The position numbers and the translations under genes were made by a program. This document shows positions 3,421-64,000 of a stretch of DNA of 64,000 nt, piece after piece. The first letter of the stretch is position 1. Each line of letters begins with the position of its first letter. The notes under the pieces are model-generated. The model was not told where the DNA came from. It ran no database searches and was given only the letters and a program-made list of their open reading frames with translations. This DNA comes from an uncultured Planctomycetota bacterium (GTDB lineage Bacteria > Planctomycetota > Planctomycetia > Pirellulales > Lacipirellulaceae), in contig CAVRBU010000005.1 in NCBI GenBank assembly GCA_963719315.1, forward strand, positions 96,001 through 160,000, given 5' to 3'.

Positions 3421-4756
3421 TTACTGGGCTGGCAGTACCGGTTTCTTCAATGCTCGCGATGTTTCGGCACGACTCGGGGCGTTGGCCAGCAACCCGCGAA
3501 GCTCGGCAAAATCGTCCTGGGAGTCGACAAGATGGTCGGCTTCACCGACGACACGGCCGTTCGGATCGATGAGAATCGTCATTGGGTAATATCTTACGCC
3601 GTAGTCGGCCGCTGCTGAGCTGCGGGCTTCCGTCTCGAAACCGACCTGTCGCGTCTTTTCGGCTTTCACGAGAGCAACAGGAAATGGCAGATCGCGGCCA
3701 AGCCAATAATTCTTTCTTGTCTCCCCGAGTGCGGCATCTAACTTGGCCGCGGTATCGACTTCGTCTCCTCCTTCAATCCCAACGTGAACACCGACAATAG
3801 CAAGTTTCTCTTCAGGAAAGCGGTCGCGAGCTTCGAACAACCTTGGCATGCGCAACACACGGCCCGCACCAATGGCCCCAGAAATGGAGCAAAACATAAC
3901 GACCCTTCAAGTCCGCTAGTCTTAATCCGCCTGAATTCTTCCAGCCATTCACACCGCGTAATTTCGGTGCCGGTTCGCCACGCAAAAGCCCAAGCGGAGT
4001 TGGTGGCAGGTCGATAGGATCGAGGTGCAATTCGCCTTTCCCTGCGTCTAATCGCAGAGGCCGATGAACTTCCTCGCCATACGTACCACTTGCAAAGAAT
4101 TCATACTTGCCAGGGGGCAATAGCAACTCGACTTCGCCCGTTAGTGAACTCCATTGGAAAGGATCGAATTTGTCGATCGCGGCCGTCCCCCAAAACGCAC
4201 CGAGCGGTTTCCCTTGATGTGCAAGGCGACTGATTCCGACTCGGACAACGACTCGGCGGGCTGGAACCATAACGACTTGGCGCGGCTGGTTCTCTTCGGA
4301 CTGATTCGATTTGTGTGGCAATGTCAACCCAGCTAACCCTCGCGATGCGTGGATGGCGACTATGCATGTTCGATCGAGCAGTCGAGAGCCCTTCGTTAAC
4401 TTCACGATTCCATCCGCATCGGTTGGTTGTGAATCCTCGTTGCAACCGAACGTCGAATCATTTTCCGAACTTTTAATGACATTTAGCCCAGCGATGGCTC
4501 CCTCCACCGGCATGCCATTTTCATCCACCACGCGAATGGAAAATCCTGGGCCATAAGCATCAATCTGTTGCGCTGATGAAGAACGAGTCGATTCGTCGGC
4601 TTGGCAGACTCCGGCGGAGAGCAGAGCCGATAAGAGGGGCAGCCAAATCACTCGGTGCAGAAACGCTTTACTCACTTTTCCCATCTCCTTCGTTGGATCG
4701 TCGCCATGCATCCTCAAACTGCGGCCGAAGCGCTTGACACAATTATAGGCGGGCAA
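3421..4756 (-). CDS. secreted TlpA/thioredoxin-like protein with N-terminal beta-sandwich region (frameshift near 3850)
   Basis: Signal-like segment; LKGRYVLLHFWGHWCGPC continues in another frame as MPRL...IVGVH...YGVRYYPMTILIDPNGRVV. Confidence 0.75.
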
Positions 4757-22097: not shown

Positions 22098-22181
22098 GGG
22101 TTCAGGGTCAGGGGTCAGGGGTCTGATTAAGTGCTCGGGCTCGGGTGCAAGGCTCTTCGCTGAACCCTGAACCCTAAACCC
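22098..22181. repeat. heptamer inverted-repeat hairpin (GGGTCAG / CTGAACC)
   Basis: gggttca gggtcag gggtcag gggtc ... ctgaacc ctgaacc ctaaacc. Confidence 0.8.
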
Positions 22182-24965: not shown

Positions 24966-25025
24966 TGTCGGGTGTCGGATGTCAGGTATCGGATTTCAGC
25001 GTCTGACACCTGAAACCTGACACCT
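24966..25025. repeat. heptamer inverted-repeat hairpin (TGTCRGR / CTGACAC)
   Basis: tgtcggg tgtcgga tgtcagg tatcgga ... ctgacac ctgaaac ctgacac. Confidence 0.8.
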
Positions 25026-27993: not shown

Positions 27994-28003
27994 GATAGTG
28001 GGG

Positions 28004-28079
28004 GGGTCGAGGGTCGAGGGTCGAGGGTCGAGGGTCAGCAATGATCTGGCCCTCGACCCTAAACCCTCCACCCTAGACC
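28004..28079. repeat. heptamer inverted-repeat hairpin (GGGTCGA / CCCTCGA)
   Basis: (gggtcga)x4 gggtcag ... ccctcga ccctaaa ccctcca ccctaga. Confidence 0.85.
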
Positions 28080-28627: not shown

Positions 28628-28705
28628 TTAGCCTTCAGCCATCAGCTTTCAGCCAACCATCATCCGTCCTTCTTGCTTACGGCTGATGGCTGACGGCTAA
28701 TAGCC
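28628..28705. repeat. heptamer inverted-repeat hairpin (TCAGCCW / CTGAYGG)
   Basis: ttagcct tcagcca tcagctt tcagcca ... ctgatgg ctgacgg ctaatag. Confidence 0.85.
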
Positions 28706-29117: not shown

Positions 29118-29203
29118 GGGTGAGGGTCTAGGGTTCAGGGTTGAGGGTTCTACATTCGACGGTCGAAGGTCGCACTCAACCCTCAACCATCGACACTAAA
29201 CCT
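29118..29203. repeat. heptamer inverted-repeat hairpin (GGGTTGA / CTCAACC)
   Basis: gggtcta gggttca gggttga gggttc ... ctcaacc ctcaacc atcgaca ctaaacc. Confidence 0.8.
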
Positions 29204-29208
29204 TCTAA

Positions 29209-30180: not shown

Positions 30181-30570
30181 CTATCTCTTTGCCGCTTGGA
30201 CCGGTTTACTTGTTTTGCCCGACGCGGCCGCTGAATGCGCCTTTTTGGCGGGCGCGATCTGGCCGGCACTCGCGCCGCACTTCTTGCAAAATCGTTCCTT
30301 GCTGCCGTCATCGAGGAACCGCGCCCCGAGCCGGGCCGCCGCGTTGCACGATGGGCAGACGTATTTCAAGTTCGACAGCTGGATCGGCATGTCCTTTTTC
30401 AAGATGCCGCCTTGAGGATACTTTTGGCTCCGGCGAATGTGCTTCTTGACGCCGTTGACGCCTTCGACAATCGCCTTGCCGGTCGCGCGATCGACTTTGA
30501 TCACACGGCTCTTGCGACCGATGTCGTTGCCCGCGATTACTTCGACGGTATCACCAGTACGGATCAACAT
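30181..30570 (-). CDS. rplX: 50S ribosomal protein L24
   Basis: GDTVEVIAG KOW motif, VEGVN, GGIL...PIQLSN. Confidence 0.95.
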   Translation of the reverse strand: MLIRTGDTVEVIAGNDIGRKSRVIKVDRATGKAIVEGVNGVKKHIRRSQKYPQGGILKKDMPIQLSNLKYVCPSCNAAARLGARFLDDGSKERFCKKCGASAGQIAPAKKAHSAAASGKTSKPVQAAKR

Positions 30571-30653
30571 AGCTGTTAGCTGTTAGCTGTTAGCTATTAG
30601 CCAATCCGCTGCAAGCCTTCTGGCTAACAGCTAACAGCTAATAGCTAACAGCT
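30571..30653. repeat. heptamer inverted-repeat hairpin (TTAGCTG / CTAACAG)
   Basis: agctg (ttagctg)x2 ttagcta ttagcca ... tgg (ctaacag)x2 ctaatag ctaacag ct. Confidence 0.9.
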
Positions 30654-31023: not shown

Positions 31024-31029
31024 GTTGAA

Positions 31030-31106
31030 GCCTTTAGCCTTCAGCCTTCAGCCTTCCAGTCAGTCAGTTTTTCCTACTGATGGCTGAAAGCTGACGGCTG
31101 ACGGCC
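31030..31106. repeat. heptamer inverted-repeat hairpin (TCAGCCT / CTGACGG)
   Basis: ttagcct tcagcct tcagcct ... ctgatgg ctgaaag ctgacgg ctgacgg. Confidence 0.85.
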
Positions 31107-33560: not shown

Positions 33561-33566
33561 GTTTCA

Positions 33567-33656
33567 TTAGCTGTTAGCTGTTAGCTGTTAGCTGTTAGCC
33601 AGAATCAAGACCGATGCCTTTTCTGGCTAACAGCTAAAAGCTAAGAGCTAAGAGCT
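33567..33656. repeat. heptamer inverted-repeat hairpin (TTAGCTG / CTAANAG)
   Basis: (ttagctg)x4 ttagccaga ... tctgg ctaacag ctaaaag ctaagag ctaagag. Confidence 0.9.
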
Positions 33657-33670
33657 TATCTCCTACTTAC

Positions 33671-34539: not shown

Positions 34540-34612
34540 GAGTCGAGAGCTAAGAGTCAAGGGCCGAGGGCCAGAATTCTGGCACTAGACCCTCAACCCT
34601 GGACCCTCGTCC
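34540..34612. repeat. heptamer inverted-repeat hairpin (GRGYCRA / TYGACCC)
   Basis: gagtcga gagctaa gagtcaa gggccga gggccag aatt ctggcac tagaccc tcaaccc tggaccc. Confidence 0.8.
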
Positions 34613-49597: not shown

Positions 49598-49631
49598 GGA
49601 CTAATTGGCTTATCGATTTTGCTTAAGTTCT

Positions 49632-49712
49632 ATTTGTCATTGCAAATTTGTAATTTGTCATTGGCCATTTCCGAAATGACCAATTTCAAATGACAGCCGA
49701 CCAATGACCAAT
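49632..49712. repeat. heptamer inverted-repeat hairpin (TTTGTCA / AATGACA), gene-less version of the 62060-62543 element
   Basis: Two 40-nt arms separated by 1 nt; left arm 37-38/40 identical to the arms at 62060 and 62504. Confidence 0.9.
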
Positions 49713-49716
49713 CCGA

Positions 49717-57536: not shown

Positions 57537-57620
57537 GTAGGGTGTGTCGAGTCCGCGAGACACACCATAACAATTCCATCCCTAAATTGGTGTGTCTCGC
57601 CAAGCCTCGACACACCCTAC
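57537..57620. repeat. inverted REP doublet upstream of the RAYT
   Basis: GTAG-REP 57537-57568 and inverted REP ending CTAC 57588-57620. Confidence 0.88.
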
Positions 57621-62010: not shown

Positions 62011-62059
62011 ATCTTTCGCTCCTAACGTGGTCGAAGCGGGGCGTGATCGGTTAAAACAA

Positions 62060-62542
62060 ATTTGTCATTGCAAATTTGTCATTTGTAATTGGTCATTTCG
62101 GGGGCGGAGTGATGGATTCCGGTCTTGCTGGTTCTTGACGAGAACTCTGCGCGCAGTCGATAATGATTGCCCCAGGATTCGGCATAGCTGATCTGATTCG
62201 TCAAGCACATCGGAAAGCATATTTTCTGAGATCGATCCTGAACGCGCGATCAAACGAAGCCAATATCTAGTTTCACGAAGCTCTTTAAGTGCGATGCTTA
62301 ACTTATGTACGAAATCCCTTCGACTCTCCGCGGCTCGTCCTTCTTCATAATTCGGCGCCGGCGAAGTTCCCGATCGTATTATTTGACTTGCGATATGCCG
62401 ACCGAGTCTTGAATCCGGCAATGAATCGGCAACTTTCCCAATCCGCGCCGCAAAATCCAACAATCGGTCCGCTAATTCATCAGGTGTCACTTAGGTTCCT
62501 TCTGAAATGACCAATGACAAATGACAAATTTGCAATGACAAA

Positions 62543-62543
<1 letters not shown>
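62060..62543. mobile_element. putative cassette bounded by 40-bp heptameric terminal inverted repeats
   Basis: 62060-62099 and 62504-62543 are reverse complements with one mismatch; mobility is inferred, not shown. Confidence 0.6.
62065..62490 (-). CDS. four-helix-bundle protein (23S rRNA IVP / TIGR02436-like)
   Basis: L.DRLLDFA, QIIRSGTSPAPNYEEG, ESRRDFVHKLSIALKELRETRYWL. Confidence 0.92.
   Translation of the reverse strand: MTPDELADRLLDFAARIGKVADSLPDSRLGRHIASQIIRSGTSPAPNYEEGRAAESRRDFVHKLSIALKELRETRYWLRLIARSGSISENMLSDVLDESDQLCRILGQSLSTARRVLVKNQQDRNPSLRPRNDQLQMTNLQ

Positions 62544-64000
<1,457 letters not shown>

Follow-up and report, generated by a model that had tools for sequence, protein, structure and literature searches.

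The rpoB-rpoC junction of an uncultured planctomycete of the Lacipirellulaceae contains a 484-bp insert in which one small gene is enclosed by two inverted arrays of heptamers. This cassette was analysed in a 64,000-nt stretch of DNA (positions 96,001-160,000 of contig CAVRBU010000005.1, assembly GCA_963719315.1; hereafter the window), which covers a ribosomal-protein and rpoBC region, as well as in the host genome (G000; 20 contigs, 90.7% complete), in a genus sample of 24 genomes and in public loci from other phyla. The passenger gene encodes a four-helix-bundle protein (P0001) of the PF05635/TIGR02436 family. Nearly all genes of this family in the genus lie between comparable arms, their protein clades coincide with families of repeat unit, and the host genome is dotted with gene-less hairpins whose arms are of the same kind. 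Our overall reading, to which we assign a probability of about 0.5, is that of a two-part repeat system, with the insert as the resident copy of the ATTTGTC/ATTGCAA family that bears the gene. The pairing of PF05635 genes with short hairpin-repeat families is widespread and apparently undescribed.

The cassette between rpoB and rpoC

A repeat search recovered the two inverted arms of the cassette (Table 1; genome coordinates C5:158060-158543), which are 40 nt each, lie 404 nt apart and are complementary at 39 of 40 positions (98%). They are composed of ATTTGTC/ATTGCAA/ATTGGTC-like heptamers, the upstream arm reading ATTTGTC ATTGCAA ATTTGTC ATTTGTC ATTGGTC ATTTC on the coding strand. A two-unit 14-mer occurs seven times in the window with no more than two mismatches, compared with 0.29 expected, and seven occurrences were reached in none of 100 shuffles. 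The final base of the rpoB stop (62543) doubles as base 1 of the upstream arm, and the TGA of the passenger gene (62065-62067) falls within the downstream arm, which is overlapped by the last 11 codons of the gene together with its stop. The G+C content of the gene is 48.8%, compared with 58.6% in the surrounding 10 kb. No other family of open reading frames (ORFs) was found inside the 484-bp insert, the ORF list and Pfam revealed no transposase or recombinase in it, and no target-site duplication was seen when filled and empty sites were compared by eye. A preliminary description of this locus, made from the sequence alone, had reported the 39/40 complementary heptamer arms, the start of one arm at the last base of the rpoB stop and the passenger's stop within the other, the AT-richness of the insert relative to rpoBC, and the lack of a transposase or obvious target duplication, and all of these statements were confirmed, with the duplication judged by eye.

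A promoter or terminator of the cassette's own was considered and dropped, since no promoter-like or terminator-like site was detected on its sense strand with the sigma-70 consensus, which may not suit this phylum. Given this result and the co-orientation of the upstream genes described below, the passenger appears to depend on read-through within the operon.

Table 1. Positions, within the window, of the cassette, its neighbours and the gene-less hairpins
Feature	Position	Strand	Evidence or remark
rpoB, 3' part (continues beyond the window)	62543..64000	-	Pfam Rpb2 domain 6 (E 5.8e-106) and domain 7 (E 1.2e-25); stop TGA 62545-62543
Upstream arm (5', sense), 40 nt, ~5.7 heptamers	62504..62543	-	Repeat search, fold, covarying helix
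Leader from arm to start codon, with Shine-Dalgarno-like GAAGGA	62491..62503	-	Read from sequence
Four-helix-bundle gene, GTG start, 141 codons + TGA	62065..62490	-	PF05635, TIGR02436, 2RLD
Downstream arm (3', sense), 40 nt, complement of upstream arm	62060..62099	-	Repeat search, fold, covariation
Native rpoB-rpoC spacer, 49 nt, with rpoC ribosome-binding site	62011..62059	-	Comparison with congeners
rpoC, 1459 codons	57631..62010	-	Pfam Rpb1 domains 1 and 2
"Empty twin", gene-less hairpin of the cassette's unit family	49632..49712		Between ORFs of 132 and 156 codons
Gene-less hairpin, other unit family	22105-22181		Tandem Repeats Finder (TRF) pairing, repeat search
Gene-less hairpin, other unit family	24966-25025		TRF pairing, repeat search
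Gene-less hairpin, other unit family	28001-28079		TRF pairing, repeat search
Gene-less hairpin, other unit family	28628-28700		TRF pairing, repeat search
Gene-less hairpin, other unit family	29118-29205		TRF pairing, repeat search
Gene-less hairpin, other unit family	30570-30653		TRF pairing, repeat search
Gene-less hairpin, other unit family	31029-31105		TRF pairing, repeat search
Gene-less hairpin, other unit family	33566-33659		TRF pairing, repeat search
Gene-less hairpin, other unit family	34544-34609		TRF pairing, repeat search

The same arrangement in paralogues and across the genus

G000 contains 11 PF05635 matches; at ten of them a simple score detected flanking inverted repeats, and the eleventh shows degenerate GGGAACA/TGTCCCC arms by eye. 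Each paralogue is associated with a different 7- or 8-base unit, for example GAGGGTT, GCTGTTA, GGGTTCA, GGTGTCG or AGTGGAGT. When the PF05635 loci of all 24 genomes in the genus sample were fetched, flanking inverted repeats were present at 122 of 127 ORFs; four had none, and one lay at a contig edge. Of 126 PF05635 genes, 112 reached an inverted-repeat score of at least 14, compared with two of 300 controls (G000 genes of 100-170 codons), and one of the two positive controls is a Y1 transposase gene with flanking repetitive extragenic palindromes (REPs). The 122 pairs of arms have a period of 7 in 104 cases, of 8 in 15 and of another length in three, and the arms are 31 nt long at the median (interquartile range 25-35). 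In 109 of 120 cassettes the gene on the upstream side is read in the same direction as the passenger, and in 87 this holds for both neighbours. Thus, the inverted period-7 arms that the preliminary description had proposed to look for at homologous genes are indeed found there.

The same description had envisaged cassettes that target gene junctions. For the gene, this was not borne out: it is single-copy in 117 of 120 genome-by-unit-family combinations, with the three exceptions attributable to coarse clustering, and 127 of 259 same-family cassette pairs share their flanks, i.e., occupy the same site in different species. Many families are found at one conserved site across species (e.g., 7/7, 6/6 and 4/4), and one site can also hold unrelated cassettes in different species (L010 vs L054/L067; L048 vs L106/L107). 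The passenger gene is single-copy and mostly inherited vertically, and the dispersing part looks to be the gene-less hairpins, not the gene. In this respect, the system resembles REP-associated tyrosine transposases (RAYTs) with their hairpin-forming REP doublets (REPINs) more than a jumping cassette.

Two of the 11 PF05635 genes in G000 (C3:281182-281496 and C2:171728-172063) are interrupted by an in-frame stop (TGA, TAG) and have kept their arms; they are probably decaying copies that are becoming gene-less hairpins. A handedness was also observed: in 111 of 122 cassettes (scored as G > C in the 5' arm) and in 95 of 126 hairpins, the 5' arm is rich in G and T and the 3' arm in C and A, and this looks identical when read from either strand. 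It might serve to avoid an unpaired C-rich Rho-loading site during transcription of the gene.

Turnover of the rpoB-rpoC junction

A survey of 21 rpoB-rpoC loci from 20 genomes of the genus showed that the content of this junction turns over between species. It is empty in three congeners, with spacers of 51, 55 or 58 nt, and the element is therefore dispensable there. A four-helix-bundle cassette with TTTGTCA arms is present in two genomes (G000 and G004) and one with ATTGCAA arms in seven (G007, G012, G016, G017, G018, G019 and G020). One locus has a single ATTGCAA arm and other palindromes, three loci have REP-type G+C-rich palindromes, three have other short-repeat hairpins and two a different small ORF. 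The filled and empty states that had been suggested as a check on the locus thus both occur within the genus. In G000, the cassette lies exactly at the rpoB stop, and the 49 nt that follow it correspond approximately to the full spacer of the empty sites (51-58 nt). Outside the genus, eleven rpoB-rpoC loci have spacers of 79-308 nt, and a public Planctomycetota metagenome-assembled genome (MAG; L181) is a third genome with TTTGTCA arms at this junction.

The junction states are scattered on a tree of the flanking rpoB and rpoC DNA: G000 falls into one group (98*) together with two empty sites and an ATTGCAA cassette, and G004 into another starred clade, in a tree that is based on 2.7 kb and a quick search and that recombination could distort. 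Inserts of 275 and 658 nt with small ORFs of unassigned family and no heptamer arms were observed in L017 (G009) and L023 (G002).

Agreement between protein clade and repeat unit

In a FastTree phylogeny of 133 proteins (120 columns, with many unresolved forks), the protein clades coincide with the unit families, and all 8-base units fall into two clades. Neighbouring protein clades have units that are one or two changes apart; the sister clades with ATTGCAA and TTTGTCA units share 55-61% protein identity. At single sites the unit drifts in both arms jointly (e.g., AGCCGTC, AGCTCTC and AGTCTTC).

As a stronger test, we then turned to loci outside the genus, namely 47 public loci with relatives of P0001 (34-76% identity), collected with this single protein as the query. 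They derive from Planctomycetota, a Nealsonbacteria MAG, Alcaligenaceae, Chthoniobacteraceae, Akkermansiaceae, Acidobacteriota, Latescibacterota, Cyanobacteria, Zixibacteria and others, and only L180 and L181 are located at rpoB-rpoC. Arms were found at 36 of the 46 loci examined. The consensus unit is within two mismatches of ATTGCAA for 25 of 33 relatives of P0001, compared with 1 of 100 for the other clades of the genus, and the arms have an A+T content of 71%, compared with 44% in those clades. The tracking of heptamer families by protein clades, which had been proposed as a check, therefore extends beyond the genus. As the word is kept across phyla between proteins that are ~40-60% identical, and is specific to the clade, these results argue for co-adaptation of word and protein.

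Gene-less hairpins

Defining a hairpin as paired TRF arrays with a loop of at most 160 nt, we found at least 126 gene-less hairpins in G000, belonging to 26 unit clusters. The "about 15 other heptamer hairpins" of the preliminary description hold as hairpins and not as a count, which is ten in the window and 126 in the genome. The unit of 60 of the 126 is within one mismatch of a cassette unit of G000, and eight match no cassette unit. A BLAST search with the cassette arm detected ~19 paired gene-less loci of the TTTGTCA family in G000. These dispersed hairpins pair an A-form arm with a B-form arm, whereas the cassette has the A-form on both sides; the shared A/B pair indicates that the hairpins were copied from one another and are not deletions of the cassette. 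Matches to the TTTGTCA arm number 26 in G000 and 38 in G004, the two genomes with the cognate gene, and 41, 27, 15 and 13 in G001, G013, G020 and G016; six genomes have none.

The hairpins are associated with gene ends. Of 140 genes oriented toward a hairpin, 108 have a stop codon in the 60 nt preceding it or within the hairpin itself, compared with 362 of 1026 at random positions; these counts come from a rough codon-composition method, and the exact junction figures are rough. A first, crude ORF calling had placed 46 of the 126 hairpins inside ORFs; in the codon-composition test most face a stop codon. The 16-kb ribosomal-protein region contains six of the 126 TRF-defined hairpins, compared with ~0.34 expected from the genome density. 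Nine gene-less hairpins between 22105 and 34609 (Table 1), of at least five unit families and including six of the 126, are located, at a density far above that of the genome as a whole, at gene junctions of the S10/spc/alpha ribosomal-protein operons; the genes at these junctions (22.1-34.6 kb) include those for S4/S11, adk/secY, L18, S8, L5, L24/L14 and L2.

A gene-less copy of the cassette's own family, the "empty twin" reported at 49632, is a twin only in part: the 40 nt of its left arm (49632-49671) share 92.5% identity with the cassette arm, and in its right arm only the inner 23 nt match well. The ORFs around it were taken as rpsL and rpsG by size and position alone. In all 24 genomes of the genus, this putative rpsL-rpsG spacer (window 49598-49716; L227-L250) contains heptamer arrays, and in 21 of them, by eye, two complementary arms; G009, G011 and G006 show one arm or non-matching arrays, also by eye. 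The units are TTTGTCA in two genomes, of the AGCYRTY type in most, and GAATGAC, GTGAGTAG or others in the rest. The spacer looks like a permanent hairpin slot, the occupant of which is replaced or drifts.

A longer-period relative of the hairpin arms was observed at C13:35352-35427, where a six-copy tandem array with a 14-nt period alternates a TTGGTCA-like heptamer with a second heptamer and adjoins further TTGGTCA arrays.

Pairing and conservation of the arms

In the predicted fold of a 541-nt RNA, the arms form a 39-bp closing stem in both the minimum free energy and the centroid structure (-172.2 kcal/mol, z -3.28), and RNAalifold recovered the same outer helix from nine rpoB-rpoC cassettes. 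In the 41-bp stem of these nine cassettes, 95.1% of 367 cells are paired, 20 of 41 pairs have changed on both sides and only two vary on one side. None of 500 shuffles matched any of the five covariation measures, and slid registers gave at most 49% pairing and at most nine both-side pairs. A long stem around the gene, as envisaged earlier, is therefore supported by the predicted closing stem and by compensatory changes in nine cassettes.

In many pairs AU is exchanged for UA, or GC for CG, with no wobble state in between. These swaps, the few one-side variants and the symmetry of G-T and A-C mismatches (see below) fit copying between the arms, and the complementarity of the arms fits DNA-level copying better than stepwise RNA compensation. 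Template switching at quasipalindromes is a known process of this kind. The arm sequence itself is also retained: by eye, the arms of G000 and G004 are identical at 79 of 80 positions, and dS between the two genomes is 0.80 for rpoB. The arms are thus far better conserved than synonymous sites.

The passenger protein

P0001 matches PF05635 (E 1.2e-18, 67.7 bits, cut-off 33.8) and TIGR02436 (E 1.6e-26, 92.7 bits, cut-off 24), so that the family assigned to it in the preliminary description holds for both profiles. It also matches, over residues 6-113, PDB 2RLD (E 5.4e-17), an entry with five chains. The passenger protein is under purifying selection at rpoB-rpoC in nine genomes; compared with its orthologue in G004, the gene is 74% identical, with a dS of 1.45 and a dN/dS of 0.10. 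The PF05635 proteins analysed here have invariant Q, S and E residues and near-invariant N and E residues.

PF05635 resembles Avd, the accessory protein of diversity-generating retroelements (DGRs), according to an excerpt of one report (PMC10053308), and in the excerpt of another Avd is a pentameric, positively charged barrel (PMC6182149). The bAvd-like profile PF22296 matches the paralogue L001 (E 2.5e-7, 31.6 bits) under its cut-off of 40, and gave no match for P0001 at E <= 10. G000 contains only two RVT_1 matches, the nearer of which (C5:217803) is ~59 kb from the cassette, and a DGR reading was rejected since no reverse transcriptase adjoins the gene. Kinship with HEPN was considered and dropped because Pfam gave no such match for P0001 even at E <= 10.

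Comparison with known systems

Coxiella burnetii's 23S rRNA intervening sequence (IVS) has an S23p ORF, a 28-bp terminal stem and excision by RNase III, as described in an excerpt of PMC4990558. Like the IVSs of Coxiella burnetii and Leptospira, the cassette is an element of ~430-480 nt with a PF05635 gene inside, has terminal inverted repeats able to pair into a long stem (39 bp here, and 28 bp for Coxiella in the same excerpt), is lower in G+C than its host and occurs sporadically among relatives. Unlike them, it resides in an mRNA operon (rpoB-rpoC) and not in helix 25 or 45 of 23S rRNA, and its tandem-heptamer arms belong to a dispersed hairpin family; furthermore, excision by RNase III has been demonstrated for the Coxiella IVS and is a possibility for the cassette. 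An IVS inside the 23S rRNA of G000 was ruled out by gene length, as 2928 nt against a model of 2925 positions leaves no insert.

REPINs and their RAYTs (Bertels and Rainey 2011; PMC3116915) are likewise dispersed extragenic inverted-repeat hairpins of several families per genome, with one single-copy gene per family that is flanked by the repeats of the family. Whereas RAYT is a Y1/HUH transposase, the partner gene here encodes a helical bundle of ~130 aa (PF05635), and the arms, unlike those of REPINs, are tandem 7-8-nt units whose hairpin families persist without a cognate gene. At least six Y1 (RAYT/IS200-like) genes were observed in G000, flanked by ordinary G+C-rich REP palindromes and not by heptamer arrays (among them C14:2333-2668, C3:130287-130622, C2:1904721-1905056 and C6:246194-246544). 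RAYT was accordingly rejected as the mobiliser of the heptamer hairpins. REPs of the same type also fill the rpoB-rpoC spacer in three congeners (L019, L026 and L029), which indicates that two separate hairpin systems compete for the same junctions.

Avd, like P0001, is a small helical bundle; in the excerpts cited above, it is a pentamer and has a reverse transcriptase as its partner in acting on nucleic acid (PMC6182149, PMC10053308). The solved relative of P0001 (2RLD) has five chains. In contrast, the P0001 gene has no adjoining reverse transcriptase and its product no bAvd profile match. Miniature inverted-repeat transposable elements (MITEs) and insertion-sequence-type elements share inverted repeats with the cassette, which has neither target duplication nor transposase. 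Cyanobacterial short tandemly repeated repetitive (STRR) sequences are, like the arrays here, tandem heptamers in intergenic DNA, and one of their published units (TTGGTCA) resembles units seen in this study. To our knowledge, STRR sequences have never been linked to PF05635 or to inverted pairing; relatives of P0001 with heptamer arms are present in cyanobacteria (L209, L213-L215, L218 and L222). In an excerpt of a CRISPR-discovery study, "23S rRNA IVP" is listed among proteins linked to CRISPR arrays (PMC10910872), and the CRISPR finder might have picked up the repeat arrays that flank PF05635 genes.

Proposed organisation and alternative explanations

We propose that the repeat system has two parts. 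One would be the single-copy PF05635 gene, enclosed by two inverted arrays of about five heptamers; lacking a promoter of its own, it would be part of the rpoB-rpoC transcript and use a separate ribosome-binding site for its translation. The other would consist of gene-less hairpins of ~80 nt, armed in the same way and dispersed over operon junctions and the 3' ends of genes. By analogy with Avd, P0001 probably forms a pentameric nucleic-acid-binding barrel, which might read the heptamer array of its family both in the arms of its own cassette and in the dispersed hairpins, perhaps with each repeat bound by one subunit. We consider specific recognition of its own word by the protein somewhat likely. 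The partnership would resemble that of RAYT and REPIN, without the transposase fold. In the transcript, the arms would close the 39-bp stem with the gene looped out, and RNase III, the gene for which is present in G000, could cut this stem as it does the IVS stems of 23S rRNA that bear PF05635 genes; by that analogy, such processing is plausible, although we lean slightly against it. The arms would be kept complementary mainly by DNA-level copying between them, through template switching or conversion. That the protein helps to keep or spread the hairpins is a still more tentative part of the proposal.

Several observations weigh against this interpretation. The units of 58 of the 126 hairpins match cassette units found only in congeners. 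G001 and G013 (assemblies 93% and 85% complete) are rich in TTTGTCA hairpins without a close homologue of P0001 (best identities 35% and 34%), which suggests that the hairpins persist or thrive without the cognate gene, and more generally no clear association was found between hairpin abundance and the presence of the cognate gene. Within the genus, the agreement between clade and unit is in part co-inheritance at orthologous sites, as shown by the many same-family pairs that share flanks (127 of 259). No wobble excess was found on the sense strand (98 G-T against 92 A-C mismatches at 3615 arm positions in 122 cassettes), and thus no specific sign of RNA-level selection emerges. The PF05635 family contains no recognised catalytic motif, so that a role in spreading hairpins would involve no known chemistry. 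Among public sequencing runs, all of them stored as contigs, none contained more than 0.17 of the words of the locus; four metatranscriptome runs (88% likeness) covered only conserved parts of rpoB and rpoC, and their few joints were short-sided or from relatives.

Three other explanations were compared with the two-part system. Filled and empty states at rpoB-rpoC that are scattered on the host tree, unrelated cassettes sharing one site, close relatives in unrelated contexts across phyla and the low G+C content of the gene would all be expected of a selfish transposing cassette, in which gene and arms move jointly into junctions, the protein is a mobility factor and the hairpins are MITE-like deletion derivatives. 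Such an element is nevertheless unlikely: the gene does not multiply within genomes (117 of 120 combinations are single-copy), many families stay at one conserved site (7/7, 6/6, 4/4), no target duplication, transposase or recombinase was seen, and the A/B arm pair of the hairpins is missing from the cassette, which they therefore do not derive from by simple deletion. If, on the other hand, the hairpins were RNA elements useful to the host, i.e., intercistronic stems for processing or stabilisation (like REPs or RNase III sites), with the protein as a passenger or a general RNA-binding factor without arm specificity, their position at gene 3' ends, their crowding in ribosomal-protein operons and the arrays in all 24 putative rpsL-rpsG spacers, whatever the unit family, would be accounted for, as would the predicted stem and the RNase III gene. 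We consider this improbable, since no sense-strand wobble bias was found and the rpoB-rpoC junction is empty, and the element thus dispensable, in three congeners; moreover, a purely structural role leaves the clade-specific unit across phyla unexplained, and it is the sequence of the arms, not just their pairing, that is conserved (79/80).

It is very improbable that the gene is a stray Avd-type DGR accessory gene or a defence-related remnant inserted by chance into a hairpin that was already there. The relationship of the family to Avd (PMC10053308, in the excerpt cited above), the PF22296 match of a paralogue below the cut-off and the existence of gene-less copies of the same hairpin family are compatible with such an origin, but the nearest reverse transcriptase is ~59 kb distant, P0001 has no bAvd profile match, arms at 112 of 126 PF05635 genes cannot be due to chance, and the gene is under purifying selection at the rpoB-rpoC site in nine genomes. 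Thus, the gene-bearing copy of a two-part repeat system is the explanation that we prefer.

Implications

PF05635/TIGR02436 is a large and widespread family with solved structures and no established function, and heptamer repeats and 23S rRNA IVSs are old, unexplained observations; the present locus joins both with PF05635. Full-text literature searches, with subscription journals and supplements outside their scope, found no published link of PF05635/TIGR02436 to heptamer arms, and the preliminary suggestion of an undescribed system agrees with this result. New in the present analysis are the rpoB-rpoC site with its polymorphism within the genus, arms that covary without wobble and are conserved beyond the level of synonymous sites, the rule of one gene copy per unit family and genome, the test of the word across phyla, and the negative result on hairpin abundance and gene presence. 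As a 484-bp insert is tolerated between rpoB and rpoC, and hairpins within ribosomal-protein operons, the stem-closed design evidently does little harm to essential operons.

If the protein reads its word, it would represent a new kind of sequence-specific nucleic-acid binder, and if the stems are cut, the cassette would be an intervening sequence of a messenger RNA. With some reserve, we also suggest a broader generalisation, namely that PF05635 proteins are sequence-reading oligomers, each clade with its own 7- or 8-base word and one subunit per repeat, which form a self-maintaining, transposase-free hairpin system at operon junctions, of which the 23S IVS would be a special case. Such word-reading would, if true, provide a function for a very large orphan family, explain dispersed heptamer repeats in many phyla and constitute a natural, modular code for short nucleic-acid words.

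Other features of the window

Just past the rpoC stop, at 57537-57620, there is a 29-nt inverted repeat (79% complementary, 26-nt loop) that is not built of heptamers and might represent a REP-type element or a terminator.

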